Below, piece after piece: positions 15,636 to 38,779 of a DNA stretch of 64,000 bases (positions within the stretch are counted from its first letter, which is position 1; each line of letters begins with the position of its first letter). The stretch comes from an uncultured Bacilli bacterium. GTDB taxonomy: Bacteria > Bacillota_I > Bacilli_A > RF39 > UBA660. The stretch is taken from NCBI GenBank assembly GCA_947628965.1, contig CANRBV010000001.1:41225-105224 (forward strand), written 5' to 3'. A program made the translations under genes and the position numbers. The notes beneath the pieces are model-generated. The model was not told where the DNA came from. It searched no databases and saw only the letters and a program-made list of their open reading frames with translations.

Positions 15636-15640
15636 AATAA

Positions 15641-16034: not shown

Positions 16035-16111
16035 TGGGGCGAAATGTGGGGATCGAACCCACGCATACCGGAGCCACAATCCGGCGTGTTAACCACTTCA
16101 CCAATTCCGCC
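16035..16111 (-). tRNA. tRNA-His: tRNA-His (anticodon GUG) with encoded G-1 and 3' CCA
   Basis: Folded by hand: 8-bp acceptor stem including G-1:C73; anticodon loop TTGTGGC (GTG); T-arm GTGGG-TTCGATC-CCCAC; CCA encoded. Confidence 0.9.
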
Positions 16112-17522: not shown

Positions 17523-18467
17523 TTAATTTTTATCTTCCAAATTAACATTTTCTTCCTTAATCAAATCAGCAAATTCGACTTTAAAACGTTCGATTTCTTT
17601 TACTTTTGCATCCTCATATATATTCTTTGCATTACAAATAGCTTTATACACATGTTTTATTTTTACTTCACTTTCATTATCGAATAGAGCATAAGAAAAA
17701 GCATTTGCAAGAATAGTTAAACAAATATCAGGATATCTTGCTGCTACTTCATACACTCTTTTATATTCATCTGTCATTTCTACAATAAAAGTCATAATTT
17801 TTTCTTTAATAAAATCTGTATAATTAAGTTTTACACCAATTTGTTTTTCTAACTTAGGATACGTTCCCATTAAAATTTTTACAGTCGTCGGTTTATCCGT
17901 TTCCAAAACATCAACTTTTTGAAATCTTCTTAAGAAAGCACGATCACGTAAAATATATTGTTCATACTCTTCCGTTGTTGTTGCCCCCACCATTTTAATA
18001 GCTCCTCGGTCAAGTCCAGATTTTAACATATTTGCAAAATCAATTCCGCCATTTTCACTATTATTTTTATTTACTAAAACATGTGTTTCATCAATAAACA
18101 ATATAGTTTTTTCTTTTTGATCTAACTCTTTTACAAGTAAATCAATCCGATTTTCCACTTGACCTTCACTTACACTGGAACCAAGTAAACTTGTAATATT
18201 GATTTTAATAAGTTCCCACCCTTTTAAGGCGTCAGGGACTAAGTTTCTTTGAATTCGATAGGCAAGTCCTTCCACAATGGCTGTTTTACCTATACCAGGC
18301 TTTCCAACCAATAGAGCACTTTTTTCTGGAGTAAGCAATATTAAAATACACTCTTTGATTTCTTCATCACGAGCAATTGCTGGATCGGTGATAAACTCTT
18401 TTTTAGTAAAATTTTCACCATAACGTTCTAGCATACTTATCTTTTCTTGGTTCATAGTATCCTCCAA
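17523..18467 (-). CDS. Stand-alone Clp/Hsp100 D1-like AAA+ ATPase
   Basis: [21 protein letters not shown] Walker A identical in pattern to ClpA/ClpB D1; Walker B ILFIDETH. Confidence 0.7.
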
Positions 18468-18521
18468 TACTATTTTATCATAATCAAAAAAGAAGATACA
18501 AAAATTTGAACTTCTTTTTTC

Positions 18522-22740: not shown

Positions 22741-23640
22741 TTAAATTTTATTTTTTTTCTTCTTTTTAATAAGAAAATATCCACCAAGCACAAGAAGCAA
22801 AGCAACAGCAAAACTAATTAAAATGTATTTTAAATTAAAAGTTTTTGTTTCTTCTTGTTCATTTTCTTCAAGGATTTCATTTTTTTCATCTGTTTTGTTT
22901 TCTACTTCATCTTCTTTACTTACATCTGTTTCGTTTGTATTTGCATCATTATTTATAGTATTGTTGTTTTCAGTAGTAGTATTAGAACTTGCATTATTAT
23001 TAGTAGTAGTAGTACTTGTATTCTTATTCGTAGTACTCGTATTTTTATTTTCTTCTTTTTCTTTATCTTGTTCTTTATTTTTATCGGTACTAGAAGACTC
23101 CTCTTTAGAAGAAGTATCTTCCTCTTGGTTTTCACTACTATTTATTTTATAAGTAAAGTTGTTTTTTTCAACTTCAGGAGTAATTTCATGAGACTTCCAA
23201 GCATTATCTAATGTTGTTAAAGACCCACATTGAATCGTATAGGAGATATCTTTTTTACTAGAAGTATCAAATAGAATATTTCCTAGTACTAAATCTTTAT
23301 CGATATTTAATAAATTGTGACTTGTTCCTACGCCACCTGTTACTACAACAATATTTAATTCTTTTGTTTTATCATCATAAGAAGTTTTTGTAGTAAAATT
23401 ACTACTTGTTAGTTTGCTATCTAAATTCATTTTTTGAAAGTTGATATTTCCATCTACTTTTAACGTAATATCAAGTCCTCCAATAAAACCATCTTCAAAA
23501 TGTAAAACGGATTTTATATTTCCATTACCCTCTTCGTGAAAAGTTAACTTTGTTGCAGCGTTTACAGAAGAAAGAGAAAGAAATAAACTGAGTACCAAAG
23601 TGGTAACAATTTTTATAAATGTTCTTTTCATTCTCTTCAC
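22741..23640 (-). CDS. Secreted membrane-anchored surface protein: N-terminal beta-rich (possibly cohesin-like) module, S/T/N/E-rich linker, C-terminal TM anchor
   Basis: Signal peptide; about 150-aa beta-strand-type segment; low-complexity linker; C-terminal hydrophobic helix + KKKKKNKI tail; 4-nt overlap with the giant upstream gene. Confidence 0.6.
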   Translation of the reverse strand: MKRMKRTFIKIVTTLVLSLFLSLSSVNAATKLTFHEEGNGNIKSVLHFEDGFIGGLDITLKVDGNINFQKMNLDSKLTSSNFTTKTSYDDKTKELNIVVVTGGVGTSHNLLNIDKDLVLGNILFDTSSKKDISYTIQCGSLTTLDNAWKSHEITPEVEKNNFTYKINSSENQEEDTSSKEESSSTDKNKEQDKEKEENKNTSTTNKNTSTTTTNNNASSNTTTENNNTINNDANTNETDVSKEDEVENKTDEKNEILEENEQEETKTFNLKYILISFAVALLLVLGGYFLIKKKKKNKI

Positions 23641-26600
23641 CTCTTATTACTAATTTCCATTTGTTTTAACTTACTATATTCTTTTAAATCCTTTAGAACA
23701 ATTGATGTACTTGTTAATCGTTGTCCTTCATGCGTAATAGCATCATTTACACGATATAGATAAGCTCGAATACTGGTGCTAGACTTTCTCATTTTTTCGT
23801 ATTCTTCTTTACTCATAACATATAGCCACGTTCCATTTGCAACATCATAAACCGTATGATCACTATTTAATTCAGCAAAGATTAATTGATATCCGCCATA
23901 GACTTTTGCCTCATCATTACTATCTGCAATTAATACTGTATTAAACGCAGGGTTACCACGATAAGAACCTTCTATAACAACAGATCCAGCTGTAATTTTA
24001 CCATCTGGGTCGTTTTCACAACCACTTTCTAAATAACAATAATCACTTGTTAATACACCAATATTTGTAATATCGACATTATCTCCTGGAGGAGCAATCA
24101 CATCAATTTCTGCACCAGATAAAACATTATTACCATCAGATTCAATCTTAATATAATTTATATCATTATAAGTCCATAATTGACTTTCACTATCAGTATT
24201 TTGTCCCATGAAGTAAATGATTTCTTCTGGTTTTTCGCTTGTTAAAGTAAACGTACCTTTTCTTGCAAGATGCCAATCATTATCATTTCCTGTAGAACTT
24301 ACATATACTTTATATTTAGTAATTGTATTTTCATCTAGTTTATCATTTTCTACTAAGGCATGATACTTAATACCACTTACAGACATTCTATTATTTAAAT
24401 TTAATAAAACATAAGCATTTCCATTATCCACTGTAATACTTGGTTTATCACTGGTTTGATTTAAAGTTTTTACTTTTTCTGTGCCTTTAAATCCTGTTTC
24501 AATTTTACCATCAATTAAGTTGTTTACTTTTAATGTAGCATAATCCATTTCTTCGTTTTCATTATCGACAATTTCATTTGCTTCTTTTACATTTGAAGTA
24601 ATACTAAAGGCATCCTTTTTAACACTACCATCATGACTTATTTTTACTTCTTCTAAAGTAACTTCATTCGTTTTATGTAAATAATAATCATAAGCAACCA
24701 CACTATATGTATAAGCTCTATTATTTTCCGCTCCAACGTTGTCAACAAATTCATTCGTACCCTTTTCAACAAAGCCAATAGAAACACCATTACGAAGAAT
24801 TTCATAACCTAAAATCTTATCGTTGTCTTTATTAACATTAAACTCTAAAGTAACACGTTTATTTTGACTATCAGCATCTCTAATAGAAGATTCTAAAATA
24901 TTGGCACCTTCATTAATTCCAACACTTTGACGCAAAGCAAAACGTCTTGCTTGATCATTTAAGTAGTAAATCGCTCTTTTTTCTTTTGCATAGTTTAATT
25001 CTTGTAATTCTTCTTTTAAAGAGCTAGATGCTTTTAATCCCCAAATTTCAAAAAAGTTCGTTAAGTCTTTCTTGACAGCCATACAAGCATAAAGAATAGT
25101 TAAATCGTCTCTAGAATAATTTTTGGTATTCTTATATGTACGAGCAATTTTATTTATTTTTGCGTAAATTGAATTTTGATCTTCAAATGTTTTTTCATTA
25201 TCATAAGCAAGATGTAATTGCCAGTACATTCCTAACTGAACAAAAACATTTTGAGCTCTTCCCGTTGTATGGGAAGTTACTTTTTCATAAATTTTATCAT
25301 AACCATTGTTTTCTAAACGGGAAGGATCACTATCATTGCTTGTTTGAGCAAGCAAAGAATAAATATTATTCGTTACTTCTGCAAAAACAGTATCTTTTAA
25401 ATTGATTTGATGTCCAACTTCATGACTAATACCCCATCCAAAATAACCTGTTTTGGTATTACTATTGCGACTGGCTTGAACAAGGCCTGCAATTGAACCA
25501 TATTCAATGCCTATATGGTAACCTCCAGCATACATAAAAGCTCCATCAAACATTTGCATATAACGAACATTAATTCTCGCTTTTGGCATTTTATCCGTTT
25601 TTTCTGTTTGGTCTGTATCACTAAATCCTTTTTGACGATAGAATAGTTCCATCATTTCATCGAAGGCTTCCATAGATTCATATAAACGATTTGTTTTTTC
25701 TTCAATGGTTTTTTTATTTGATTTTAAAGCATCTTCTACAGCTACACTGGAAACGGACAACAAACCGTATTTTGTTACAATTTCTGTAGAGCCTAAAACA
25801 CTTTTTTGTTTATCAAAGCTTTTTCCGATAGATGCATAAGCACTTTCTAAAGTACTATTGTAATTTTCTAATTCTTTAATATATTTTTTTATTGCTGCTT
25901 TTTTATCTGTCTCATTTTCCAATAAGGTTGTATCAACCATTGGAATTTTAGTTCCTCCACTTACACGCACTTTTATTGGATTAGTAGTACTAGGTGTACT
26001 TGTATAGCGAATATAAACGCTTCCACCACGTTCATCAGTAGAAGAACCAATTTGTGGAACTGTAATAATATTTAAACCCTTATGTAAACTTTCCGTTGTA
26101 TAAGCTTTATTCCATTCACTTGCTTCAGCATGGTATTGAGTAAATATCACTTGGGCATTAATTGCCCCATTACTTCCAACATAAACATTGATTGTCTCTC
26201 CAGGTCTAGCAACAATTCCTAAAGGTTGATAATCACTAATCGTCATTGCAAATTTAACATGACCATTATACGAATTGGAAATGTTTGGATTTAGAGTAAT
26301 AACATCATCAATATGTTCATCATTTAATATTTTCTCCGCATAATCCAAATCTGCAAGTACGCTATCTTTATAAGGAGAATACTCTCCATTATCTTGTTCA
26401 TTTGCTCTTTTTCTTAATTCATTAATTTGCTTTTGATCTACGCCCTCTGCTAGGACAAGACGAAGATCGTCTGTAAATAAGGCAGCAACATCGTCCACTA
26501 ATGAATCGTAATGATAAAATTTTACTTCATCAATTTTAATATCACGAACATTTCCAGCAACAGTTAATCCAAATGCTACCGCTTTAGCAGTAATTGGATT

Positions 26601-28808
26601 TTCTAATTTTAATACATAGTATTTACGTCCCTTTTCATCTTGTTTTGAAAGAAGGGTTCCTTTTACTTCTTTACGCTCTGTATTGTCATAAATCTCTTGG
26701 TTAGACTCCCAATAATGCAATTTAACATCATTGCTATTTGGTCCACCAGATTTTAAAGAAGCCGCATAATTATCTGGAACTGTTAAGACAAATTCATCCA
26801 TTTGATAGGCATTATCTAAAACAATCACTGGGGTTCCTAAGTTGTAAGCACCATTTGCTGAAATTTGCCAATCATTATGATACCAATAAGTGTCATAATG
26901 GTCATCAACAATCGCAAATTTATTATCATTCGTCATGGTTCCCGTATGATAGAATACGTTTTCAATATGATCAGTTTTCTTATTTTTTTGATCATAACCA
27001 CTATTAATTAATTTATATTTTGGTACAATTGCAGCACCTGCTTCTTTCGTAGTTGCTTTTACTAAAGTATAACTATCACTTTCTCCTAAGTCATTTACTC
27101 CAAGTACATAAGCTTCATATTCAGTATCAGCTTTTAACCCACGTACAGAATAACTATTTGTCGAAATAGATTCTACAACAGAATAAACAGCCGTTCCAAC
27201 TTCACGATAATATAATTTATAAGATTTGGTATCGTCCATTTTTTTCCAACTAAAGTCTATTCCTCCATAGGTAGGAGTTGCAACCACCATATCTACTTTT
27301 GGTGGTTTTCTTGTTGCTTGTGGAGTTCCTTCGTGAGCATCACTCCAACCACTACGCCATTCTTGATTTACAGATTGAACGTATATATAATATGTTTCAT
27401 AATTTTTTAAATCTTCAATTGTAAAGGTTGTAAAAGTAGTTTGGAAAATAACTCCACTTTCCATTTTAGGCCCTACAATCTTAATTTCATAACCTGTTAC
27501 ATTTGGTACATCGTGAAAAGTAATAGTTAGTTGTTCACTTTTTGTATCATCAACATGAATATTTTGAGGAACATAAAATCCATCTGGTTCTTTTGTTTTT
27601 GTTTTAACATTATTTAAAAATTCTACTTTTGCTATATCTGCTAAAGTATTTGAAGAAGTTTCGGTAATTATAATAGTTACTTTTTTAACAGCAACTTGTT
27701 TTCCTAAGTCTACTTTAATTGTCCCTTCACTTGCTTCGTCTGTAAATAAATGTACTTCATTTAAACCTTGTAAAGTATCATCTACTTCATATTCAAGAGT
27801 TTCATTATCCTCTGTTAAAACGAGTAATTTCATTTTTTTAGGAATATTTTCTTCTCCTATTCCAATTCTAATTTCACTCATTTCAACAGTTTCACTATTA
27901 GAATTTTTTCCTAAATCAAGTGCAAACTCAATTGGATTATCTATAGAAATAGCTTCTTCATTTGCAGATTTTAAAGTTACAATTCCTGTATCACTAAATA
28001 AATCACTTAAATTACTTTCCTCACTAATTGTTGTTCCATTTGCTACTTCTAAAGACACATTTTCATTATTCATGATAAGACTTGTATTTTCAATTTTAGC
28101 ACTTTCTTTTTTAGAATTTAAAATTGCTGTTATGTAATTTAAATCTGCAATATCAACAACTCCATCTAAATTTAGATCATTTTTCGTGTCATTATTTTTA
28201 ATAGATTCCATTAAAATCTCTTCATCTTTTTTATTTACTTGATTGTCTTGATTTACATCACCAATTTCAAACATTCCAGCTTCATTAGATAAACTTATTC
28301 TTTTAGAAAAATCATCTAAAGTAACATCTACGCTATAGGTTACAAAATGGTTCCCGCTAAGTTCTAAAGTATACTTTCCTGTATTTAGTGAATATAAATT
28401 CATACTATAGTAAACTATATTTTCACTAGTAACGTCTCCTGATAAAACAAAACCATTCGTATTTCGTTTTGTAATTAAAGAACGGATAGTTTGTGTACCT
28501 AATTTAATAGAAGTTTCTAAAATACCATCTTTAGCGTTTTTCATTTCATTTAATGAAATAGAGGCTTTGTTATTATTTTCATCAATAATGGATAAAGCAA
28601 TATTTGTTTCTTCTCTATTTCGAAAAGGAAGAGCTAAATGAAGTTCTACTTCTATATTCCCTTTTTCTTGTATATCTCCTAAAGCAATACTACGAGTTTC
28701 TTCCCTTGTTTCCATTGCCAAAACAATTAAAGGTGAAAAATTATAAAAAAGCATTGCCCATATTAATAAGATTGATACTAGTTTATTTAAAATTTTCATA
28801 CTAACCAC
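23637..28808 (-). CDS. Giant secreted multidomain protein (1723 aa) with dockerin-like Ca-binding repeats, FN3-like modules and an M60-like/enhancin-type HExxH zinc-peptidase domain
   Basis: Signal peptide; GDVNQDNQVN...DLNLDGVVDIADL dockerin repeats; GWGISHEVGHQ zinc-binding motif. Confidence 0.7.
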   Translation of the reverse strand: MVSMKILNKLVSILLIWAMLFYNFSPLIVLAMETREETRSIALGDIQEKGNIEVELHLALPFRNREETNIALSIIDENNNKASISLNEMKNAKDGILETSIKLGTQTIRSLITKRNTNGFVLSGDVTSENIVYYSMNLYSLNTGKYTLELSGNHFVTYSVDVTLDDFSKRISLSNEAGMFEIGDVNQDNQVNKKDEEILMESIKNNDTKNDLNLDGVVDIADLNYITAILNSKKESAKIENTSLIMNNENVSLEVANGTTISEESNLSDLFSDTGIVTLKSANEEAISIDNPIEFALDLGKNSNSETVEMSEIRIGIGEENIPKKMKLLVLTEDNETLEYEVDDTLQGLNEVHLFTDEASEGTIKVDLGKQVAVKKVTIIITETSSNTLADIAKVEFLNNVKTKTKEPDGFYVPQNIHVDDTKSEQLTITFHDVPNVTGYEIKIVGPKMESGVIFQTTFTTFTIEDLKNYETYYIYVQSVNQEWRSGWSDAHEGTPQATRKPPKVDMVVATPTYGGIDFSWKKMDDTKSYKLYYREVGTAVYSVVESISTNSYSVRGLKADTEYEAYVLGVNDLGESDSYTLVKATTKEAGAAIVPKYKLINSGYDQKNKKTDHIENVFYHTGTMTNDNKFAIVDDHYDTYWYHNDWQISANGAYNLGTPVIVLDNAYQMDEFVLTVPDNYAASLKSGGPNSNDVKLHYWESNQEIYDNTERKEVKGTLLSKQDEKGRKYYVLKLENPITAKAVAFGLTVAGNVRDIKIDEVKFYHYDSLVDDVAALFTDDLRLVLAEGVDQKQINELRKRANEQDNGEYSPYKDSVLADLDYAEKILNDEHIDDVITLNPNISNSYNGHVKFAMTISDYQPLGIVARPGETINVYVGSNGAINAQVIFTQYHAEASEWNKAYTTESLHKGLNIITVPQIGSSTDERGGSVYIRYTSTPSTTNPIKVRVSGGTKIPMVDTTLLENETDKKAAIKKYIKELENYNSTLESAYASIGKSFDKQKSVLGSTEIVTKYGLLSVSSVAVEDALKSNKKTIEEKTNRLYESMEAFDEMMELFYRQKGFSDTDQTEKTDKMPKARINVRYMQMFDGAFMYAGGYHIGIEYGSIAGLVQASRNSNTKTGYFGWGISHEVGHQINLKDTVFAEVTNNIYSLLAQTSNDSDPSRLENNGYDKIYEKVTSHTTGRAQNVFVQLGMYWQLHLAYDNEKTFEDQNSIYAKINKIARTYKNTKNYSRDDLTILYACMAVKKDLTNFFEIWGLKASSSLKEELQELNYAKEKRAIYYLNDQARRFALRQSVGINEGANILESSIRDADSQNKRVTLEFNVNKDNDKILGYEILRNGVSIGFVEKGTNEFVDNVGAENNRAYTYSVVAYDYYLHKTNEVTLEEVKISHDGSVKKDAFSITSNVKEANEIVDNENEEMDYATLKVNNLIDGKIETGFKGTEKVKTLNQTSDKPSITVDNGNAYVLLNLNNRMSVSGIKYHALVENDKLDENTITKYKVYVSSTGNDNDWHLARKGTFTLTSEKPEEIIYFMGQNTDSESQLWTYNDINYIKIESDGNNVLSGAEIDVIAPPGDNVDITNIGVLTSDYCYLESGCENDPDGKITAGSVVIEGSYRGNPAFNTVLIADSNDEAKVYGGYQLIFAELNSDHTVYDVANGTWLYVMSKEEYEKMRKSSTSIRAYLYRVNDAITHEGQRLTSTSIVLKDLKEYSKLKQMEISNKR

Positions 28809-28877
28809 CTGTTAATATTATATAGTATGACCTAAATTCTGACAATAGACTTTTAAACTTTATGAAAAATTTTTTTA

Positions 28878-31163
28878 TTATCGATTTTTTTCTTTATATG
28901 ATATATCTCGTTTAATGGAATATAATTTTATTAATTGTTCATAACTTATTTGTATTACTTTTCCACCTTTAGGATTTATCTTATTTCCGAAAACAATCCA
29001 AATAACATCCATAGGAATATCAGGCATACTTGCTATTCCATCAGTAAATATTATTTTATTTTCAACTCTTTTAGTAAATGCGCGAACAGCTACATTAAAG
29101 TCAGTTCCACCATTTCCTTCAAGTCCTTCAAATCCCATATTTTCAATATCTGCTTCAGTTCTTATTTCGTGAAAGCCATAAAATTTCGTATCAAAACAGC
29201 CAACTTTTATCTTTGAGTACGGTAAGATATTTAAACATTCTCTTAAAAAATTTTTTAGCAATCTTTCATTTACAGAACCGCTTGTATCCAATAAAATTTC
29301 TGTTTCTGCCTTTGGTTGTTCTTCTAAATTAGCATGTATAACGTCGTCTTCAATATAGGCATTTTTATAAGACCAATCAACATCGTATTGAATTGGTTCT
29401 TTTAATATATATCTCCAATCTATTATCGGTTTAGATTTTCCTATATCATTTATGATTCTCTGTTCGCTATTAGTAGATGTTCCAGCTTCCATTGCTTCTT
29501 GAGATACAGTTTCTATTGCTTGTTGAGATAAAACTTGCTTTAATTCTTCTAATTCTTTTCTCTTTTCTTCTAAATTTTTTTTAAAAGCGCTTTTCTCGCC
29601 CATTTTACTAATTTTGCCTATCTCTTGTTGTAATCTTTTTTCTTGTTGATTTTGTTCTTCCATTTGTTGCTCATCATCTTGAAATTCTTTTTTATCTTTT
29701 GATTCAGCTTCTTTTAGTTTTTTTACTGCATCTTTCCACATACTATGAGTATCATGACCTACATCATCATTTTGTTCTTCAGAAGGAATTGATTCTGATG
29801 AAGAAGTTCCTTGCCCTTGTGATTGATTTTCATTTTGATTTTGAGATTCATCTAAAGAACTTTGGGATTGATCTTGTGATCTTTGTTCAGATGTGCCCTG
29901 TTGATTTTGTGATGAACTTGTTTGTTCCTCACTTTTCTCTTCATTTTGTTCATTAGATTGAGATTCTTTTTTATTTTTTGATACAGCTTCTTTTAATTTT
30001 TTTACTGCATCTTTCCACATACTATGAGTATCATGACTTACATTATCATTTTGTTCTTCAGAAGGAATTGATTCTGATGAAGAAGTTCCTTGCCCTTGTG
30101 ATTGATTTTCATTTTGATTTTGAGATTCATCTAAAGAACTTTGGGATTGATCTTGTGATCTTTGTTCAGATGTGCCCTGTTGATTTTGTGATGAACTTGT
30201 TTGTTCCTCACTTTTCTCTTCATTTTGTTCATTAGATTGAGATTCTTTTTTATTTTTTGATACAGCTTCTTTTAATTTTTTTACTGCATCTTTCCACATA
30301 CTATGAGTATCATGACTTACATTATCATTTTGTTCTTCAGAAGGAATTGATTCTGATGAAGAAGTTCCTTGCCCTTGACCTTGTTGTCCTTGTTTAGAAG
30401 ATGATGAACTTTGTTGATTTTGTTGTGAATTGGATTGTTCTTGATTTTGTTCTTCATTTTGAGTTTCAGAATTTTGCCCTTGTGATTGATTTTCGTTTTG
30501 TTTTTGAGAACCTTTTGAAGAACTTTGCCCTTGACCTTGTTGCCCTTGTTTAGAAGATGATGAACTTTGTTGATTTTGTTGTGAATTGGATTGTTCTTGA
30601 TTTTGTTCTTCATTTTGAGTTTCAGAATTTTGCCCTTGTGATTGATTTTCGTTTTGTTTTTGAGAATCTTTTGAAGAATTTTGCCCTTGATCTTGTTGTC
30701 CTTGTTCAGAAGATGATGAACTTTGTTGATTTTGTTGATTACCTTGACCATTTTGTCTTTTACTTTGTTGCTTTTCTTTAAGTAATTTATCATAAAACTC
30801 TTCTGCATCGTAATTTATTGCTTCTGCAATATCTACTACACCATCAACAAGTTTCAACCCATCTCGTTTTAAAAATTGATTTATTACACCATCTGTTGCT
30901 ATATTCCAAACATAAGGATCTTTATTTTCACTTCTTCTTATATGATCAAACGCTATATGGCATACCTCATGAGCAAATATAAAAATTTGTTCATCTGTGT
31001 TAAGATTTTTTAAAAATTCTAGATTATAAAATATCGTTTGTCCATCAGTACATGCAGTTGATATTTTTTTATTCTCTCTATAGTTTACATTTGCAACTAC
31101 ACTCCCAAAGAAAGGGTATTTTACAAGCATTTTTCTTTTTACAGATTCAATATTAAAGTCCAT
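28878..31163 (-). CDS. HExxH metallopeptidase-like N-domain + long Q/S/N/E-rich repeat region + C-terminal vWA domain (COG3864/DUF2201-like, MoxR partner)
   Basis: FIFAHEVCHIAFDH (HExxH); C-terminal LLDTSGS MIDAS (DxSxS) motif; sits with a MoxR-like AAA ATPase. Confidence 0.7.
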   Translation of the reverse strand: MDFNIESVKRKMLVKYPFFGSVVANVNYRENKKISTACTDGQTIFYNLEFLKNLNTDEQIFIFAHEVCHIAFDHIRRSENKDPYVWNIATDGVINQFLKRDGLKLVDGVVDIAEAINYDAEEFYDKLLKEKQQSKRQNGQGNQQNQQSSSSSEQGQQDQGQNSSKDSQKQNENQSQGQNSETQNEEQNQEQSNSQQNQQSSSSSKQGQQGQGQSSSKGSQKQNENQSQGQNSETQNEEQNQEQSNSQQNQQSSSSSKQGQQGQGQGTSSSESIPSEEQNDNVSHDTHSMWKDAVKKLKEAVSKNKKESQSNEQNEEKSEEQTSSSQNQQGTSEQRSQDQSQSSLDESQNQNENQSQGQGTSSSESIPSEEQNDNVSHDTHSMWKDAVKKLKEAVSKNKKESQSNEQNEEKSEEQTSSSQNQQGTSEQRSQDQSQSSLDESQNQNENQSQGQGTSSSESIPSEEQNDDVGHDTHSMWKDAVKKLKEAESKDKKEFQDDEQQMEEQNQQEKRLQQEIGKISKMGEKSAFKKNLEEKRKELEELKQVLSQQAIETVSQEAMEAGTSTNSEQRIINDIGKSKPIIDWRYILKEPIQYDVDWSYKNAYIEDDVIHANLEEQPKAETEILLDTSGSVNERLLKNFLRECLNILPYSKIKVGCFDTKFYGFHEIRTEADIENMGFEGLEGNGGTDFNVAVRAFTKRVENKIIFTDGIASMPDIPMDVIWIVFGNKINPKGGKVIQISYEQLIKLYSIKRDISYKEKNR
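29690..30790. repeat. Intragenic near-identical tandem repeats: 3 x 279 nt (about 29690-30370) and about 2.7 x 156 nt (about 30370-30790)
   Basis: Read in the DNA (gatacagcttcttttaatttttttactgcatctttccacatactatgag... at 29701/29980/30259; ccttgaccttgttg[t/c]ccttgtttagaag at 30373/30529/30685). Identical antisense ORFs offset by 279 nt in the track. Confidence 0.9.
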
Positions 31164-31173
31164 AATTTATTCC

Positions 31174-31569
31174 TCAAATATGAGCAACTAATGAATAAAT
31201 TTCTTCATTAATTGTTTCTTTATTTATATTTGTAGCTGTTAAAATGATTCTTGTGTTTTCTGGTATTTTAAATGTGGACACTTGTCTATACTCTAATAAT
31301 TCTTTAAATTTTAATTGCTCTTCTTTAGAGATACTATCAATATCTTTTATAACTATTATTTTAGCTTCATTTGTATTAGTTAAATCATAATACCATTTAG
31401 GAGCTAGGAAATCTACTCCCTCATAATAACCATTCAATTCTTTTGTTTCACAATTTGCTGGTATTATTACAGATTTTGGAATACTGATATTAGATGCAAA
31501 ATCAATAAGAATAGGAGCAACATTAATTGAAAGATAACTGTTTAACATATTCATTTTATCATTATTCAT
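31174..31569 (-). CDS. Hypothetical 131-aa protein, middle gene of the ATPase/vWA operon
   Basis: 4-nt overlap with the upstream ATPase gene; 10-nt gap to the vWA gene. Confidence 0.55.
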   Translation of the reverse strand: MNNDKMNMLNSYLSINVAPILIDFASNISIPKSVIIPANCETKELNGYYEGVDFLAPKWYYDLTNTNEAKIIVIKDIDSISKEEQLKFKELLEYRQVSTFKIPENTRIILTATNINKETINEEIYSLVAHI

Positions 31570-33494
31570 TTTTTTCTACCTCCCGCAGCAAGTCTGGCTT
31601 CAGCAATTAATTCTAGTCTAGATTCATCACCATGTGACCATAACGAATCAAATATTGCCCCAAACTCCGCTCCTAGACTTATTACGAAACTTCTTACTTT
31701 TGCCATATTTTTTTCGTCAACTTGAGAAAGACCCATTGTCGTAGCATATCTGGAGGCAGTATTTAATGATTGTATGTCTAGTCCACTATAGGTTCCATTT
31801 ATTACATCATTTAACGTTATAACTGGTTGATTGCAGAACTCTAAAAATTCTCTAGTTATATCTTCTCCCACTAAAGCTCTTAACATTCCTGGGCTTCCAG
31901 TAGCGTAAAGCATTTTAGAAGCCATTTCCCATTTTCTAGGATCAGCATTTGGCTTTACACCATTATATTGACTTCTTAATACTGCACCTTTTCTATAAGC
32001 TATATAGGAATAAATTGCAGGATGAATATTATGTTCACTTGCCCATTTTAACCATCCATCCGTTGTTGTTCTGATATATACATGTGCAAATCTATTAAAT
32101 AATGGTTCGGCTAATTGATTTGCTGATAAGGAATCTTTCATCTCATTACCAGCAGCAACTATTCTTGCATTATCTGGTAGTTGCCATATTCCATTTACTT
32201 CTCTATCCAAAATAATGTTAAAAGCTATTCCTTGAATACTAGGCAAAGCATTTGTTATCTCATCAAAGAAAACGATATGTAATTTATCAGGTTCTGCCTC
32301 ACATTTAGCTTCTAATTTTTTTAACCATGTAGGTTTTATATCAATCATTTCACCTTTTTCAGAATTATAAGCACTTTTTCCATTTAAACTTTCAGGTGTT
32401 GCATTTCTTAAATATATAATGACACAATCAGGGTCAATTTGTTTTACTCTTGCGCTTTTTCCTTCACTTGAAGCACCATGTAAAAATACAGGCACTCTAC
32501 TTGCAATTGCACCTTTAATAATTTCTTCTTCACTGACTTGTCCAAAATTAAATCCATAGGGATTGTTTTTTTCACTTCTTTCTGAATATTGATAAGAAGT
32601 ATTTTTTACTTTTTCAATTTCTTTTTGGTGCTGATTAGAAGTTTTGCCAGAATTTGCTTGTATCACTTTAGTTTTACTTGATACTATATCTCTTACAAAA
32701 TAAGTATTTAAAAAATCATACATATCTGTGCTGGTCCAATCAGAATCAGAATAAAAATAACCATCTTTATTAAATCTTATTCCCGATGCAATTATATTTT
32801 TGCTTAACATAACCTTTTTAAAATTATCAACATACCATTTAAGTGGAGATACCTCTATCCAAACAATATCTCCATTTTTATATTGTTCTCCATTTGAAAG
32901 TAAAGAAACACGTGGATTTCTATTATACACTCTTACATATTTTCTTCCATTATATTCAAATTCCTCATTTTTCATTGGGTAAAATCTTGTCAGTTTATCA
33001 TCGCATTTGATGGAATCCGTTGTATATGTTTTTCCAGTTTTTTTTAATATTGTACCAGATTGATATGCTTGTTCCAAATCATATTCCATAGATGAACTAA
33101 CGACATATTGTGGATATTCTCCATACTCTATTTCTACAAACCTATGTGGTAGTATTCTCGTTATTCCATTTGAAGAGTTAGATTGGTGAACGTCTAATAT
33201 AGTTGGGCGAACTCCATTTGTCCTAGTTCCAGCAGAAAATTTACTGATAGAACCATTTATATCAACAGCAAGTGGATTTCCTTGTCCATCAGAGCTCATT
33301 AAATTGTAATTACCTGTGTGCCCTTTTAAAGAATTATCATAATTTACATAAACATCTTCAGAAACGAAACCTCCTAATAATATAGCAAAATCTGTTATTG
33401 CACACTTTGCACCCATATTTTTTTTAATCATTCCATTAAAATCATAAATTTGTTCTGCATTAAGTAATGTAATTTCACCACTACCAAAATTCAT
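31566..33494 (-). CDS. MoxR-like AAA ATPase with an uncharacterised ~320-aa N-terminal domain
   Basis: Walker A GASSEGKS; Walker B IVFFDEITNA; AAGNE sensor region; no recognisable motif in the N-terminal half. Confidence 0.65.
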   Translation of the reverse strand: MNFGSGEITLLNAEQIYDFNGMIKKNMGAKCAITDFAILLGGFVSEDVYVNYDNSLKGHTGNYNLMSSDGQGNPLAVDINGSISKFSAGTRTNGVRPTILDVHQSNSSNGITRILPHRFVEIEYGEYPQYVVSSSMEYDLEQAYQSGTILKKTGKTYTTDSIKCDDKLTRFYPMKNEEFEYNGRKYVRVYNRNPRVSLLSNGEQYKNGDIVWIEVSPLKWYVDNFKKVMLSKNIIASGIRFNKDGYFYSDSDWTSTDMYDFLNTYFVRDIVSSKTKVIQANSGKTSNQHQKEIEKVKNTSYQYSERSEKNNPYGFNFGQVSEEEIIKGAIASRVPVFLHGASSEGKSARVKQIDPDCVIIYLRNATPESLNGKSAYNSEKGEMIDIKPTWLKKLEAKCEAEPDKLHIVFFDEITNALPSIQGIAFNIILDREVNGIWQLPDNARIVAAGNEMKDSLSANQLAEPLFNRFAHVYIRTTTDGWLKWASEHNIHPAIYSYIAYRKGAVLRSQYNGVKPNADPRKWEMASKMLYATGSPGMLRALVGEDITREFLEFCNQPVITLNDVINGTYSGLDIQSLNTASRYATTMGLSQVDEKNMAKVRSFVISLGAEFGAIFDSLWSHGDESRLELIAEARLAAGGRKK

Positions 33495-33804
33495 ATTTCA
33501 CCTCGTTCGCATATCATTTACATATATTTTACCATAAAATATTTAATAATAATATGTCAAAAAGTATAGTTTACAAAAATAAAGTAAAATATAGGAAATA
33601 AAATTAAAATTGACTTGATTTATGATTTTTTTGTTCTTCTTTATTTTTGAATAAAACTAAAATCTCGTTAATAACTATATTTTTATTGTGTAAATTTCAA
33701 ATTCTGTATCATTCTATTTATGATGTTACTAAAAAATACACAAAAAAATGTTATATCGGTATTTATTGATATAACATTTTAAGTGTTTAGTTTAAAGCAT
33801 TCTA

Positions 33805-36177
33805 TTATTTATCTCTTAATTTTGCTTTAAATGTTTCTTCTACTTTTTTTATTATTGCATTAAAAACTTCCATTACTTCTTCTTCTTGTAAAGTTCTTGT
33901 TTCATCTTTAAAGGTTAATTTATAAGCAATAGATTTTTTACCCTTTTCTATTTCAGGATATAAATCAAATACTTCACAAGTTGATAATATTCTTTTTCCC
34001 GTGTGAACAATTTCTTTTTTAATGCTTTCACTATCAATTTCGTTCGCTACAATAAAAGCTACATCTTTTACAATTTCTGGATATTTATTTGCTTCTTTAT
34101 ATTTTATAGGTTTAATACTTGCTTGATCTAAAATATTCATAGAAAGTTCACAAACAAAAAGTTCTTCTTTTAAAATATTTGGGTGTATTTTACCAATAAT
34201 ACCTACTCTTTTCTTATCTAGATAAATACTTGCACTAACTCCTGGATGTAAGGAATCTATTTCTTCACTTACAAAAGAAAAACGATTTTTAAAACCTAAG
34301 TAGGTAAGTAAGTTTTCAACTATTCCTTTTAATAAATAAAAGTCTGCTTTAATATTTATTCTTTGCCATTCATTTGTTAGATAGTTTCCTTTCATTAAAA
34401 TTGCTATTTTTGTTGTTTCATTAAAATCTTTATCATAAGTTTTAGCAATTTCATAAATATTGACATCCTTAACGTTTCTCTTTTTATTATATTCGTAGGT
34501 ATTTAATAAAGAGGGTAAAATGCTTGTACGAATAATACTTTTATCAACACTCATTGCATTTGGTAAAGTAATTGGTTCTTTTTGATCATAACAAAATAAT
34601 TTAGCCATTTCAGGACTAATTAAGGTATATGTTTTTACTTCGTTTAAACCAAGTGTTCTTAAACGTTTAGAAATTTCTTTTCGTATTTTAACATCTCCAA
34701 CATATTCTCCCATTCTAGTACTGGCAGTAGGCAAAGTAGAAATTAAGTTATGATAACCATAAAGTCTTCCAATTTCTTCAGCAATGTCGTTTACATTTGC
34801 ATCAATATCTAATCTCCTACTTGGAATTGTTACCATAAATACATCTTTTTCTAAAGTATAAGGAAAACCTAAACGATCCAATTCTTTTTCCATATCTTTT
34901 GTTTCAATAACTATACCAAGCATTTTATTTACATCTTCGGCTTTAAAATTAACTATTTTTGGTGTTTTATCGATTACATCATGTTTTACAGTATCCTTTA
35001 GTATAGTTGCATTAGCGTATTTTTCAAGTAAATGACAAGCTCGGTTAATAGCCATATTTGTATACTCATAACTTAAACCTTTTCCATAGCGAATAGATGC
35101 TTCGCTTTTTAAATTCAAATGACTTGCTGTATTTCGAATAGAAACAGCATCAAAAATTGCACTTTCTATTAAGATTGTTTTCGTATTTTCATCAACTTCA
35201 GTATTTTCTCCCCCCATAACTCCAGCGATACAAACTGGTTTATCGCCATCGGTAATTACAATATCGCTTGATTTTAAAGTTCTCTTTTTACCATCCAAAG
35301 TAACAATTTGTTCGTTTTCCTTAGCATCACGTACTAAAATATGATCTTTTAATTTCTCCTTATCAAAAAAATGAAGAGGTTGTCCAAATTCAAGCATAAC
35401 ATAGTTAGAAATATCAACAACATTATTAATTGGGCGCATTCCAGCAGCAGTAAGTCTTTTTTTAATAAATTCTGGACTTTCTTTAATTTCAACATTTGTT
35501 ACCATTTTGGCAAGATAATAAGGGCATTTTTTAGTTTCGACTTCTAATTTAAAATGATTTTTTATAGAATCACTATTTTCTTTATATTCTAGATTTGGTA
35601 ATGTTACTTTTTTATTTAGAATAGAAGCAATTTCATATGCGAAACCAATATGATAAAAACAATCATTATTACGATGTTTATGAATATCTAGTTCATACAA
35701 AGTATCATCATAACCTAAATATTTTAGTGCATCTACACCAACTGATGCTTTATTATCAACTTCATAAATTCCTTTTTGATAATTTTCTTCTGTTTTTTCT
35801 TCTAGTCCTAATTCAAATAAAGCGCAAAGCATACCATTGGATTCTACCCCACGAATTGTACTCTTTTTTATTTCAAAATCTCCAGGAAGTATTGCTCCTG
35901 GCAAAGCAACAATCACTTTTAAACCTGCTTTTACATTTGGGGCTCCACATACAATTTGGTAAGTCTCTTTTTCATTTACTTTTACTTGGCAAATATGCAA
36001 ATGGTCGCTATCTGGATGCGGTAGACATTCTAAAACTTCTCCAATTACTAAATGATCAATATGGTTCGTTATTACTTTTTCTACATTAATTCCAGCTTTC
36101 GTAATTTTTACTGCTAATTCTTTTAAATCCTCATCTTTAATATCTACATAATCACTTACCCACTCTAAACTAATCAT
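33805..36177 (-). CDS. pheT: Phenylalanine--tRNA ligase beta subunit
   Basis: MISLEWVSDYVD N-terminus; tRNA-binding, B3/4, B5 and FDX-ACB layout; follows pheS. Confidence 0.9.
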   Translation of the reverse strand: MISLEWVSDYVDIKDEDLKELAVKITKAGINVEKVITNHIDHLVIGEVLECLPHPDSDHLHICQVKVNEKETYQIVCGAPNVKAGLKVIVALPGAILPGDFEIKKSTIRGVESNGMLCALFELGLEEKTEENYQKGIYEVDNKASVGVDALKYLGYDDTLYELDIHKHRNNDCFYHIGFAYEIASILNKKVTLPNLEYKENSDSIKNHFKLEVETKKCPYYLAKMVTNVEIKESPEFIKKRLTAAGMRPINNVVDISNYVMLEFGQPLHFFDKEKLKDHILVRDAKENEQIVTLDGKKRTLKSSDIVITDGDKPVCIAGVMGGENTEVDENTKTILIESAIFDAVSIRNTASHLNLKSEASIRYGKGLSYEYTNMAINRACHLLEKYANATILKDTVKHDVIDKTPKIVNFKAEDVNKMLGIVIETKDMEKELDRLGFPYTLEKDVFMVTIPSRRLDIDANVNDIAEEIGRLYGYHNLISTLPTASTRMGEYVGDVKIRKEISKRLRTLGLNEVKTYTLISPEMAKLFCYDQKEPITLPNAMSVDKSIIRTSILPSLLNTYEYNKKRNVKDVNIYEIAKTYDKDFNETTKIAILMKGNYLTNEWQRINIKADFYLLKGIVENLLTYLGFKNRFSFVSEEIDSLHPGVSASIYLDKKRVGIIGKIHPNILKEELFVCELSMNILDQASIKPIKYKEANKYPEIVKDVAFIVANEIDSESIKKEIVHTGKRILSTCEVFDLYPEIEKGKKSIAYKLTFKDETRTLQEEEVMEVFNAIIKKVEETFKAKLRDK

Positions 36178-37222
36178 TATTTTTCTCCCTTCTATCAAAA
36201 TCTCTTATTTCTCTTAAATCAGTTTGATAAAATGTGCGAATATCACTAATGCCATATTTAAGCATTGCAAGTCGTTCTGCTCCAAAACCAAATGCAAAAC
36301 CACTCCATATATTTGGATCATAGCCACAATTTTTCAAAACATTAGGATGTACAATTCCAGCACCACTTACTGTAATCCATCCTGTATTTTTACATAAAGA
36401 ACAACCTTTTCCTTTGCAAGCAAAGCAAGAAATATCTGTTTCTACAGAAGGCTCGGTAAATTGGTAATAACTTGGTCTAAAGCGAACTTCACAACTTGAA
36501 CCAAATAATTTTTTAAAAATAGCATCCATTGTACCTTTTAAATCTGAAAGACTAACATTTTTATCGACAAGCAAACCTTCAATTTGCATAAATTGATGCG
36601 AATGGGTTGCATCATCATCATCTCTACGATACGTTTTTCCAGGGCAAATCATACGAATTGGCTTATCTCCACCCGCTTTAAGCATGGTTCTTGCTTGCAC
36701 TGGAGAAGTTTGACTACGCAACAAAATTTCTTCTTCTTTTATATAAAATGTATCTTGAGCATCTCTTGCAGGATGACCCTTTGGTATATTTAACAATTCA
36801 AAATTAAAACGATCTTCCTCTATTTCTGGTCCATCCACTACATCATAGCCCATAGACATACAAATATTTTCTATTTCTTCAATAATGTGTTCTAAGATAT
36901 TAGGTGCACCTAAAGGTATCTTTACTCCTGGTAAAGTAATATCAATTTTTTCCTTTTCCAACTTTTCTTTAATTTCTAAATCCTCATAATACCTTATTTT
37001 TTCTTCAATTTGAGAAGTAATTTCATTTTTTAAATCATTTAATATTTTTCCAAATTCTCTTTTCTCTTCATTATTTAATTCTTTTAAATGCATTGTTAAT
37101 TCATTAATAGGGCCTTTTTTTCCTAAATATAAAATTTTTAACTCATTCACTTCTTTTAAATTTGTTGCTTTTTCAATATTTGTTAAAGCTTGTTCTTTTA
37201 ATTTTTTTACTTTTTCATTCAT
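36170..37222 (-). CDS. pheS: Phenylalanine--tRNA ligase alpha subunit
   Basis: Class II aaRS motifs (HPARD, FRPSYYQFTEPS, GFAFGFGAERLAML); start set at MNEKVKK with GGAGG RBS. The longer track ORF runs through the leader terminator. Confidence 0.9.
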   Translation of the reverse strand: MNEKVKKLKEQALTNIEKATNLKEVNELKILYLGKKGPINELTMHLKELNNEEKREFGKILNDLKNEITSQIEEKIRYYEDLEIKEKLEKEKIDITLPGVKIPLGAPNILEHIIEEIENICMSMGYDVVDGPEIEEDRFNFELLNIPKGHPARDAQDTFYIKEEEILLRSQTSPVQARTMLKAGGDKPIRMICPGKTYRRDDDDATHSHQFMQIEGLLVDKNVSLSDLKGTMDAIFKKLFGSSCEVRFRPSYYQFTEPSVETDISCFACKGKGCSLCKNTGWITVSGAGIVHPNVLKNCGYDPNIWSGFAFGFGAERLAMLKYGISDIRTFYQTDLREIRDFDRREKNND

Positions 37223-37239
37223 TTTTTCTTCCTCCTTAA

Positions 37240-37480
37240 AATTAAAAAAGCCCCTTACAAATGTAAGGGACGAAATATAATCCGCGGTACCACCCAAATT
37301 CTAGAAATTTTCTAGCACTTATTTTAGATTTAACGCATCTGTACGATAAAATTAAAGCAAGTGAATTTCGCATTTATTCTTTATCTTTAGATAGTTTCAG
37401 CGTACCCTATCTAATCTCTGTTTGAAGATAGAATAAATCTACTTAAAATTGCTCTCAAACATTTTATTGAGTTTATTATA
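37240..37480 (-). promoter_or_regulatory. T-box riboswitch leader of pheST with intrinsic terminator (37244-37269)
   Basis: T-box conserved sequence AAUUUGGGUGGUACCGCGG on the minus strand (37282-37300); followed by cccuuaca-uuu-uguaaggg hairpin + U-run; ends immediately 5' of pheS. Confidence 0.8.
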
Positions 37481-37510
37481 GCACATAAATTTCATTTAAG
37501 TACAATCTTT

Positions 37511-38638
37511 TTATGCTATTTCTATATTATTTAAATTAATATTATTAAAATTATCAATTTGAAAAGAGGCATTCTTTACAATTTGGTTATATCCACTTTT
37601 CATAATTTCATCGGTTAGACCAAATACTTGAGCAAAGGATAAATATCTATCCCATAGAATTACTTCTTCAGGATTTTTATCTACAAAATTACCAAAATCC
37701 GAAAGAAAATTTTTAAATGAAATTAATTTTTGTAATTCTTCTACTCCTTTATTGGTTCTTAATAAGTGATTATTTAAAGCTTCATAATAAGAACTATTTT
37801 TTACATTTTTTCCTATTTTAATAACACTTTTAATTATATACAATACATAAAAAGGTATGAATAATAAGACATAGGCTAGTATAAACGCTAGTAAGGCGTT
37901 TAAAAAACCAGATCCAAACCCAAATAGTGTTGCTATAGCAATACTGGTAATTAAATGAGCTTTTCTCATTTTTTTTAGTTCCGCCATATTATCAAAATTA
38001 CTTTTCTTTTTTTCTTCATCTTGATGATAATAAAGATTTAGCTTTTTCCCATCTTCTAAGCAATACTTAAACCATTCTTTATAATTAATATTTTTTAAAT
38101 TGTTTGTTTGTACTAAATTCAAAATATACTTTTCGTTATCGAGTAAGTGTTCATCCGCTGGTTTTAATATTTTAATAAAGTATTTATCCATTTCTTTGTT
38201 TAATGAAAGATACTTTTTGGCACATAAATCAAGTACAACAGCTATAATATCTTTTTCATTTTCAATTTTAGAATCAAACAAAAGTGAGGTTACACCAATA
38301 CCATAATTATTTGGTAATTCTCTATAATAAATATAGGGATTTGTTTTTTTAATTGCTTTATTTTCTTTATAAATAAACCTTTTGCCTTTTATTTTTCCTA
38401 ATGTGCTTCCTATAATTGTTGAAATGTAGAAAAATAAAATAAAGCTTAACAGAAATAAAACTAGAGCTTTGGTTGATGTTGTTTGAAAAAAACCAGTTTG
38501 AGTTAAAGGCGCTTTATACACTTTTATTATTCCATAGCTAAGACCCGCAATAAATATAATATTTAATAGTAATAAGATTAGCCAAACCACTAGGGGATAT
38601 TTTTGTTTAGTTTTGTATTGTGTTTCATCACTTTTCAT
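37511..38638 (-). CDS. Polytopic membrane protein, function unknown
   Basis: Several hydrophobic helices at both ends with a soluble central region. Confidence 0.6.
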   Translation of the reverse strand: MKSDETQYKTKQKYPLVVWLILLLLNIIFIAGLSYGIIKVYKAPLTQTGFFQTTSTKALVLFLLSFILFFYISTIIGSTLGKIKGKRFIYKENKAIKKTNPYIYYRELPNNYGIGVTSLLFDSKIENEKDIIAVVLDLCAKKYLSLNKEMDKYFIKILKPADEHLLDNEKYILNLVQTNNLKNINYKEWFKYCLEDGKKLNLYYHQDEEKKKSNFDNMAELKKMRKAHLITSIAIATLFGFGSGFLNALLAFILAYVLLFIPFYVLYIIKSVIKIGKNVKNSSYYEALNNHLLRTNKGVEELQKLISFKNFLSDFGNFVDKNPEEVILWDRYLSFAQVFGLTDEIMKSGYNQIVKNASFQIDNFNNINLNNIEIA

Positions 38639-38779
38639 ATTTCTTTCCTTTCAACTAGAAACGTAAATTCCTTACTTTTTCTAATTTTATTATAGCATTG
38701 ATTATAGAAATTAGGAAAAAAATTTATTTTTTCAAGGCATTATCAATATTTTAGATATATATTAGTAATATTATTTCAA

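Follow-up and report, generated by a model that had tools for sequence, protein, structure and literature searches.

The 64,000-nt stretch of DNA analyzed here (the window: positions 41,225 to 105,224 of contig CANRBV010000001.1, assembly GCA_947628965.1, from an uncultured bacterium of the Bacilli) carries a cassette of three genes. They encode a MoxR-like ATPase of 642 amino acids (aa), a small protein of 131 aa, and a 761-aa protein in which a putative zincin metallopeptidase is joined to a vWA domain. With moderate confidence, we interpret this locus as a mobile, cytoplasmic recognition-and-proteolysis module, most likely acting in genetic conflict. It is marked as a probable conflict system because in related loci a diversity-generating retroelement (DGR) rewrites the recognition domain at the N-terminus of the ATPase. 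Such a role fits because the relatives ride on integrative and conjugative elements (ICEs) and carry the DGR. The window copy itself lacks the DGR, and its recognition domain is fixed.

The DGR is observed in a sample of about 45 loci (designated by L numbers), which is a convenience sample and not a census. In many related loci, an open reading frame (ORF) of 337-360 aa directly upstream of the ATPase gene encodes a reverse transcriptase (RT; RVT_1, E = 8.9e-14, with the motifs LGNLSSQ and YMDD). Upstream of the RT gene lies a template repeat (TR) of 80-103 nt that matches ATPase codons ~67-100, the variable region (VR). A TR/VR pair with at least 75% of mismatches at TR adenines was found at 11 loci, four of them from the genus of the window (L010, L012, L013, and L014). 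The adenine sites account for 7-17 of the 9-20 mismatches at these loci, and for all of them in L035 (10/10), L037 (12/12), and L040 (10/10). The TR and VR share the same GC-rich 3' end, GCCGTTCGCCCAG, and a 193-aa ORF preceding the template has a weak bAvd-like match (E = 3e-4). Because an RT, TR/VR mismatches at adenines, and a conserved VR end are the defining marks of a DGR, the cassettes of these relatives carry such an element, with the N-terminal domain of the ATPase as its variable region. In L021, the 22 adenines of the template are distributed over 15 codons, and their counterparts in the window ATPase are within aa 69-99.

The same part of the protein is variable in close homologues. 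In an alignment of 49 ATPases of ~630 aa, column entropy is 1.1-1.7 bits at columns 71-90 and does not exceed 0.64 bits in any other ten-column block. Identity of the window protein to the four nearest loci is 38-52% in the N-domain vs 85-89% in the core. The ratio of nonsynonymous to synonymous substitution rates (dN/dS; NG86 method, a single pair formed by the window and the nearest orthologue L019, with dS similar across the parts) is lowest in the core (0.15), followed by the small protein (0.21), the peptidase (0.25), and the vWA domain (0.32), and reaches 0.75 in the N-domain. The core, the small protein, and the peptidase and vWA parts are under purifying selection, and the N-domain changes fast. 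Since its identity is low and its dN/dS is high compared with the core, the N-domain is fast-evolving even without a retroelement.

The first-pass annotation of this DNA recognized no motif in the N-terminal ~320 aa of the ATPase. This description has to be replaced: judged by its homologues and by weak structural matches, the N-terminus appears to be a divergent DUF6273/C-type-lectin-like domain, which in relatives is the DGR-type variable domain. From the N- to the C-terminus, the ATPase consists of this domain, a beta-rich subdomain, a helical linker, and the MoxR-like AAA+ core; the parts preceding the core are referred to below as the N-module. PF19789 (DUF6273) is matched by 8 of 36 aligned N-domain homologues (best E = 4.6e-6) and is the sole recurring family; the Atlas lead for a DUF6273-like N-domain is 0.87-0.88. 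The model of the N-module has a predicted local distance difference test score (pLDDT) of 83 overall and 91-98 across aa 31-100. For aa 1-114, the best structural match, itself weak, is 9qa6_A (Z 3.7, root-mean-square deviation (rmsd) 2.5, 88 aligned residues), followed by other weak ones, 8oks_B (Z 3.4, rmsd 3.6, 70 aligned) and the C-terminal part of Lcl, 8q4e_A (Z 2.8, rmsd 3.1, 68 aligned). The structure 9qa6_A is the IgA peptidase of Thomasclavelia ramosa, whose N-terminal domain was described by the depositors as DUF6273 (PMC12402451). Foldseek searches of the N-module against PDB and BFVD gave no match at E <= 0.001, and a wide structural search produced no row with Z >= 5. DUF6273 is known as a C-type-lectin-like DGR target, with a rare 5'-proximal, N-terminal VR in the tentaclins of gut phages (PMC10743442).

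The N-module has at least 318 homologues, mostly in ~630-aa ATPases of gut "Bacilli/Firmicutes" metagenome-assembled genomes, and a few of them carry a precomputed DUF6273 label. In other proteins it is located C-terminally to the core, duplicated, or joined to non-ATPase C-termini. The latter architecture is seen in L022 (10001-11788, P0121), P0006, P0063, P0077, and P0109. In P0006 the partner consists of DUF4116 repeats; another partner belongs to no known family, and its neighborhood contains Abi_2, radical SAM, and HTH-CYTH genes. At five loci, a second ATPase copy with its own N-domain is present in tandem.

In the window, the retroelement is gone. The source assembly (1.23 Mb in 57 contigs, 91% complete) has no match to the cassette-linked RT or to PF00078, which the control genomes do match; an RT match is found in 17 of the 30 other species of the genus. 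Window positions 33100-33400 have no second copy, either in the assembly or in the window. The conserved VR end is reduced to the remnant GTTCGCCCA, with a GC content of 0.43 vs 0.5-0.62 in relatives. The genome occurs in rabbit-gut metagenomes, and in Logan contigs of the source sample the region 32340-33600 is on single contigs and shows no differences. With the DGR gone from the genome, the specificity is fixed. The DGR-less state is common, since most sampled cassettes lack an adjacent RT gene.

The ATPase core contains Walker A (GASSEGKS, aa 340-347), Walker B (IVFFDE, aa 407-412), and AAGN, with the sensor-1 asparagine, after the strand that follows Walker B. The first-pass annotation expected three Pfam matches in the cassette. 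Those to DUF2201_N and the vWA family were found, whereas AAA_5 scored 17.5 bits against a cut-off of 22 (E = 0.0044), with only the second half of the profile covered. The distant homologue P0013 clears the AAA_5 cut-off with 26.6 bits, and the phage ATPase family phrog_1297 matches aa 324-611 (E = 1e-43). The AlphaFold model of the core (pLDDT 87) is closest to NorQ (9qh4_A, E = 1.6e-9, template modelling (TM) scores 0.55/0.68) and CbbQ2 (6l1q_A, E = 3e-8) in Foldseek. NorQ/NorQD chains and CbbQ2 fill all 19 top rows (E from 1.6e-9 to 1.6e-7, TM scores 0.44-0.55 by query), and dynein, MCM, McrB, and NtrX rank below them. By its predicted fold, the core is MoxR-like, of the NorQ/CbbQ kind (CGN type). 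The core profile had only weak matches to NSF, NtrC-type, and TRIP13 chains among solved structures, and single-sequence searches of solved structures with P0001 and P0003 yielded nothing useful. The vWA partner (DUF2201) is encoded two genes downstream of the ATPase in all complete loci examined. Cassettes L011, L026, and L043 encode core-only ATPases of 359-391 aa without the N-module, a phage-like form, and keep the small-protein and DUF2201 genes.

The 131-aa protein, listed by the first-pass annotation as a protein of unknown function, is identified here as a catalytically dead paralog of the AAA+ alpha/beta core. Alignment of the small-protein profile (28 homologues) with the ATPase core using hhalign gave a probability of 93.9% (E = 1.5e-7, 123 columns). 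The order of strands and helices is kept, but the protein has lost the P-loop GK[ST], carries DI in place of the Walker B DE, and lacks a lid. At E <= 0.001 among 1.84 billion proteins, the family has 326 representatives (50%-identity clusters), nearly all of them stand-alone proteins of 120-140 aa. No fused forms were seen among longer proteins, which is weak evidence, and the profile matches no solved structure. One related protein, P0329 (2397 aa), is matched by profile positions 15-79 in 19 separate stretches (E = 1e-18) and appears to be a repeat protein made of the small-protein half-domain.

Complex prediction suggests where the small protein may bind. With the ATPase core it scored 0.83, compared with 0.01 for the best of three controls; 58 of 80 solved complexes pass the mark used, as do 2 of 110 mismatched pairs, a calibration that is approximate here, as our own alignments were supplied. 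At least 94% of contacts are the same between runs, and the partner pLDDT is at least 87. The predicted interface spans Walker A, Walker B, and lid residues of the ATPase, that is, the position of the neighboring protomer in an AAA+ ring. Thus, the small protein is predicted to sit on the nucleotide face of the ATPase, which is a plausible binding mode. The partner being AAA+-like, this result may also reflect likeness to solved protomer interfaces of AAA+ proteins. A dead AAA+ subunit on a separate small gene would be an unusual route to build or regulate an AAA+ assembly.

The third protein has an N-terminal zincin, a long linker, and a C-terminal vWA domain, with no other domain between or beyond them. 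PF13203 (DUF2201_N) matches with E = 2.3e-34, PF09967 (DUF2201, vWA-like) with E = 6e-10 (39.7 bits vs a cut-off of 26.4), and phrog_1314 with E = 5.5e-60. The zincin motif HEVCH occupies aa 65-69 (within HEVCHIAFDH), and DTSGS of the metal ion-dependent adhesion site (MIDAS) occupies aa 626-630. Three groups of residues are invariant across nine homologues: E66, H69, and H74, consistent with HExxH and a third zinc ligand; D626, S628, S630, T707, and D708 of the MIDAS; and H473 and W476 of an H-S-[ML]-W element that closes the linker on its C-terminal side. These motifs indicate an HExxH zincin joined to a MIDAS-bearing vWA domain through a variable linker. In the same-genus homologue of L010 (9476-10639), the first histidine of HExxH is replaced by tyrosine (AYEVSH) and the rest is kept; this copy may be peptidase-dead.

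The linker (aa 131-505) consists of 23% Q, 21% S, 12% E, and 10% N. The first-pass annotation had noticed tandem repeats in it, and Tandem Repeats Finder indeed identifies two arrays: 2.5 copies of a 279-nt unit with 98% identity (29679-30377) and 2.4 copies of a 156-nt unit with 97% identity (30369-30737). The 279-nt unit contains H-S-M-W, which is thus present three times in the window protein (aa 287, 380, and 473). The repeats remain in frame. Their copy number is that of the assembly only, as the arrays interrupt the Logan contigs assembled from the source rabbit-gut runs. All length variation of the family falls in the linker: homologues have 417-641 aa, and the 761 aa of the window protein is the largest length seen. 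Of the three features that had been considered lineage-specific elaborations, the N-terminal extension and the small gene are family-wide, and the size of the repeat expansion alone is specific to this copy. A 163-aa ORF in another frame inside the repeat region (30317-30808, minus strand) is most likely a by-product of the low-complexity repeats and not a gene.

The distribution of the cassette is patchy, in agreement with the earlier view that it is not a ubiquitous housekeeping triad. Of 31 species genomes of the genus, 7 encode the small protein, taken as a marker of the cassette; with the species of the window excluded, the DUF2201 protein is present in 7 of 24. The order of the ATPase, small-protein, and DUF2201 genes is conserved in ~40 loci with unrelated flanks. 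Thus, of the neighborhood conservation proposed for checking, the order of the triad holds and its position does not: the triad invariably moves as a unit, from one genomic site to another. In L021, L042, and L057, a DGR-bearing cassette lies between the transfer and recombination modules of ICEs, in the company of PrgI, VirB4-like, CHAP, and PemK genes and two large serine recombinases. The flanks of L059 contain a tyrosine integrase and IstB-like (IS21) genes. In L055, a DGR-bearing cassette is found on an IMG/VR contig beside an endolysin-like gene, a prophage-like context. Bare insertions between housekeeping genes are also observed, e.g., between rpsR and rpmE in L019 and L058. In L024 the cassette is again near pheST, as in the window, with different genes between them and a DUF2201 protein of 463 aa.

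The action of such a module could be as follows. The lectin-like N-domain would bind a foreign protein or another ligand inside the cell; no hydrophobic stretch suitable for a transmembrane helix or a signal peptide was found in any of the three cassette proteins. The dead subunit on the nucleotide face would set the assembly or activity of the ATPase, and the vWA domain would dock on the ATPase ring as NorD does on NorQ. An ATP-driven pull on the linker, with its invariant H-S-M-W, would then switch the zincin on, and the activated enzyme would cut the bound invader protein or host proteins. The H-S-M-W element at the linker end is, conjecturally, a candidate latch on the peptidase. A more ambitious description, which we put forward tentatively, presents the whole family as a retroelement-programmable, ATP-driven machine for targeted proteolysis: the DGR would retarget a MoxR motor acting on a zincin held latent by the linker and the vWA domain, ICEs and phages would spread the system among gut Bacilli, and the window would contain a frozen version of it. 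As for the beneficiary of the window copy, host defense is more likely, because a long-resident chromosomal set has been kept intact with no element genes beside it.

Several observations weigh against a conflict module. The N-domain of the window itself matches no Pfam family, and its fold matches are weak (Z <= 3.7), not above the level of unrelated rows. No model of PADLOC-DB 2.0 matches the three proteins, which is the outcome of the defense-system search suggested earlier, and no known defense gene adjoins the cassettes examined. The sole stray PADLOC match is to the TIR-like ThsB (E = 0.0013), over 53 residues of the N-module; among neighbors of the window cassette and one related cassette, PADLOC produced generic GTPase and AAA matches only. 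With neither an RT nor a TR in the window, diversification does not apply directly to this copy. The activation step, comprising the linker pull and the H-S-M-W latch, is purely conjectural, and for the family as a whole we infer the conflict function, at every step, from sequence. Finally, the abundance of the ATPase and DUF2201 genes in phages and the ICE-borne DGR copies fit a role in the service of mobile elements at least as well. Thus, for the original suggestion of a candidate conflict (defense) system, the patchy distribution and the ICE-borne relatives with DGRs speak in favor, and the PADLOC result and the phage abundance against.

An alternative that we consider possible, if doubtful, is that the module serves the mobile elements themselves, as a tool with which ICEs and phages, on entering a cell or taking it over, would recognize host proteins and degrade or remodel them. 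The targets could be, e.g., defense and restriction or surface-assembly factors, with the DGR retargeting the tool in new hosts, and the window copy would be a stranded remnant of an element, kept or not yet lost. The phage data agree with this alternative. The ATPase core is found in 682 phage records and DUF2201 in 504 of 50,697, mostly in virulent N4-like and jumbo phages and also in cyanophages. The two genes are 1-2 kb apart, in virulent N4-like phages near rIIA-like early genes, as in Erwinia phage MIF8, where the pair is near an rIIA-like gene. On plasmids, DUF2201 is about ten times rarer per record (66 of 72,556). The position of DGR cassettes between the conjugation and recombination modules of the three ICEs and the copy near an endolysin-like gene on the IMG/VR contig point in the same direction. 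However, the window copy, L019, L024, and L058 have no element genes beside them, yet they retain every catalytic motif under purifying selection, and location is indecisive, as ICEs and prophages also carry host-protective cargo. In addition, the dead AAA+ subunit was not detected in the one phage locus considered: gp5 and gp6 of MIF8, located between the ATPase and DUF2201 genes, showed no relation to the small protein in a single-sequence test, which is weak.

It is improbable that the window copy is a decaying fossil of a DGR cassette, functionless at present. The absence of an RT and a TR from the assembly, the partly eroded GC-rich VR end, and the linker swollen by recent tandem duplications could all be read as decay. 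However, the three ORFs are intact with every catalytic motif complete, the four parts other than the N-domain have dN/dS values of 0.15-0.32, the repeats stay in frame, and the prevalence of cassettes without an adjacent RT suggests that the DGR-less state is stable. Least probable of all is a housekeeping MoxR/vWA chaperone that matures or metallates one cellular enzyme, like NorQD, CbbQO, CobST, or RavA-ViaA: the fold of the core is nearest NorQ and CbbQ, the vWA domain has a MIDAS motif, and MoxR/vWA pairs usually do have this role (PMC13036017, PMC9976466), but the cassette is confined to a minority of species of the genus, no client gene is conserved nearby and the flanks vary by locus, the relatives are linked to ICEs and DGRs, and both the HExxH peptidase and the hypervariable lectin-like domain are foreign to known MoxR chaperone pairs.

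Returning to the locus itself, its layout agrees with the first-pass annotation in the number and lengths of the ORFs, the quoted motifs, and the 4-nt overlap of the ATPase and small-protein ORFs (31566-31569). All ORFs are open under translation table 11, and an alternative genetic code was considered and dropped for this reason. The coordinates are collected in the table.

Table. Features of the three-gene cassette and its upstream gap (window coordinates).
Feature	Position	Strand	Basis
ATPase gene, 642 aa	31566-33494	-	ORF list
Divergent DUF6273-like (C-type-lectin-like) domain, aa 1-110	33165-33494	-	PF19789 matches of homologues, model
Equivalent of the DGR variable region of relatives, aa 69-99	33198-33290	-	mapped from L021 TR adenines
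Beta-rich second subdomain of the N-module, aa 111-245	32760-33164	-	model; weak matches, Z <= 3.5
MoxR-like AAA+ core and lid, aa 321-642	31569-32534	-	motifs, Foldseek, dN/dS
Walker A	32454-32477	-	motif
Walker B	32259-32276	-	motif
Small-protein gene, 131 aa	31174-31569	-	ORF list
Zincin-linker-vWA gene (DUF2201_N and DUF2201), 761 aa	28878-31163	-	ORF and Pfam
Metallopeptidase core, aa 1-130	30774-31163	-	Pfam, homologue alignment, motif
HExxH	30957-30971	-	motif
Two tandem-repeat arrays coding for the Q/S/N/E-rich linker	29679-30737	-	Tandem Repeats Finder
vWA-like domain, aa ~560-745	28929-29486	-	Pfam, homologue alignment, motif
MIDAS DTSGS	29274-29288	-	motif
Promoter-like site (TTGACA, 18 nt, TATGGT), pheT/ATPase gap	33531-33560	-	consensus match only

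The window has a GC content of 27%. The cassette was originally placed directly upstream of pheST, and this has to be reversed: pheS and pheT (33805-37297) share the strand of the cassette and precede it in the direction of transcription, so that the cassette is downstream, separated from pheT by a 310-nt gap. Consensus sites like the promoter-like one in this gap are no more common here than in shuffled sequence. A terminator scan of 28500-34000 found none, and an Rfam scan of the whole window at gathering thresholds yielded tRNA alone, with no T-box or other leader before pheS (37298-37510). The flanks are pheT on one side and an M60-like peptidase gene on the other. A prophage or ICE enclosing the cassette was considered and dropped in view of these flanks, the serine-recombinase island beside tRNA-His being 13 kb away, in accordance with the earlier statement that the locus is not in an obvious mobile element.

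The product of the gene directly after the cassette (23637-28808) has 1723 aa and combines an M60-like (enhancin-type) peptidase domain with M60-like_N and fibronectin-III domains; it is probably a secreted peptidase acting on mucin-type glycoproteins; the gene is absent from this position in the close relative L024. The low-GC island at 8969-16110 (20-24% GC, GC skew to -0.5) adjoins tRNA-His (16035-16110). It encodes a large serine recombinase (8969-10663), a small resolvase (10781-11371), a Macro-domain protein (11796-12293), a zinc-ribbon protein, and two ORFs without a family, and is probably an integrated element distinct from the cassette. At 17523-19889, a 314-aa classical AAA ATPase, with weak PADLOC matches to TRIP13 (E = 9e-9) and IetA (E = 5e-7), adjoins a 455-aa HAAS-domain protein. 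Two neighboring paralogous membrane-protein genes (375 and 341 aa) with similarity to DUF2207_C are located at 37511-39805. At 47345-49393, a Gram-positive-type pilin or adhesin of 682 aa is encoded, which contains a thioester domain and four SpaA prealbumin-like domains.

To date, both the MoxR/vWA conflict systems and the cytoplasmic targets of DGRs are known only as predictions from sequence, and the earlier examples come mostly from large-genome, multicellular bacteria that are hard to handle. The family described here is compact (three genes, or six elements counting the DGR), soluble, and carried by ICEs of gut Firmicutes, and two of its parts are homologous to a gene pair of hundreds of cultured virulent phages, including relatives of coliphage N4. 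Three questions thereby become testable: the ligand of a DGR-diversified intracellular lectin domain, the control of a protease by a MoxR motor and its vWA partner, and the role of the widespread ATPase/DUF2201 pair of phages. Four papers were found that mention DUF2201, none of them functionally, and we found no paper describing it in a conflict role.

Among known systems, the NorQ/NorD and CbbQ/CbbO pairs of CGN MoxR proteins provide the best fold matches and have a vWA partner with a MIDAS. In NorQD, NorD docks on the NorQ hexamer through its vWA domain, and the NorD linker next to this domain is remodelled by ATP hydrolysis (PMC13036017). In contrast, the cassette ATPase is too divergent for AAA_5 and carries a recognition domain, its partner has a peptidase, and there is no metalloenzyme client nearby. 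A different arrangement is found in magnesium chelatase BchI/BchD and cobaltochelatase CobS/CobT, where an inactive AAA+-like module accompanies an active AAA+ ring, and an acidic or polar low-complexity linker attaches a vWA/MIDAS domain. The cassette would resemble this description in having a putative active ring, a dead module, and a vWA/MIDAS domain on a low-complexity linker. However, a single BchD polypeptide comprises dead AAA+ module, linker, and vWA domain, whereas here the dead module is a separate 131-aa protein, and there is no chelatase H/N subunit.

The phage pair of phrog_1297 and phrog_1314 has a homologous AAA+ core and zincin-vWA protein, encoded close to each other in the same order, in N4-like (Schitoviridae), jumbo, and cyanophages. 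The phage ATPases are shorter (~300-350 aa) and lack the lectin-like N-domain, and no relative of the 131-aa protein was seen in the one phage locus tested. Among the DUF6273 DGR targets of gut phages (PMC10743442), the tentaclins are receptor-binding proteins of the virion and have Ig-like domains, whereas here the domain is fused to a cytoplasmic AAA+ protein. In DGR targets generally, the lectin fold displays a variable ligand-binding surface, and Midasin-like targets are also known (both PMC5758913). By description, a similar architecture is found in the CLec-AAA ATPase targets of candidate phyla radiation bacteria and DPANN archaea (Paul et al., 2017, as quoted in PMC10907252), which have a DGR-diversified lectin fold on an AAA-type ATPase in small genomes; a zincin-vWA partner or a dead AAA+ subunit is not reported for them in the consulted texts (PMC10907252, PMC5758913).

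The first-pass annotation assigned the locus to the vWA-MoxR systems predicted computationally by the Aravind group, and this assignment did not survive. Kaur et al. (2020) defined four ternary systems by a third component, VMAP, iSTAND, FtsH, or a beta-propeller, and by effectors C-terminal to the vWA domain (PMC7159879). None of the four components was found in the three proteins using Pfam, NCBIfam, and PADLOC (VMAP-C being excluded only by size and the AAA+ assignment), and there is no C-terminal effector. The third component here is a dead paralog of the MoxR core; the lectin-like domain is of the DUF6273 type and is located at the N-terminus of the ATPase, whereas theirs is C-terminal on the vWA protein; and the vWA domain follows a DUF2201_N zincin. 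The hosts also differ, small-genome gut Bacilli here and multicellular bacteria there, and the window copy has no DGR. The similarities are in the general organization: the genes of a MoxR-like AAA+ protein, a vWA protein, and a third protein form one set, which includes a peptidase, many members have a DGR-diversified C-type-lectin fold, and the genes are mobile and patchily distributed. MoxR/vWA systems with DGR-diversified lectin domains were proposed as sensors of invaders or antigens (PMC7159879; Dore et al., 2024, PMC10907252), and a similar sensing role could apply here. Thus, the family shares the logic of the vWA-MoxR ternary systems, not their defining parts.

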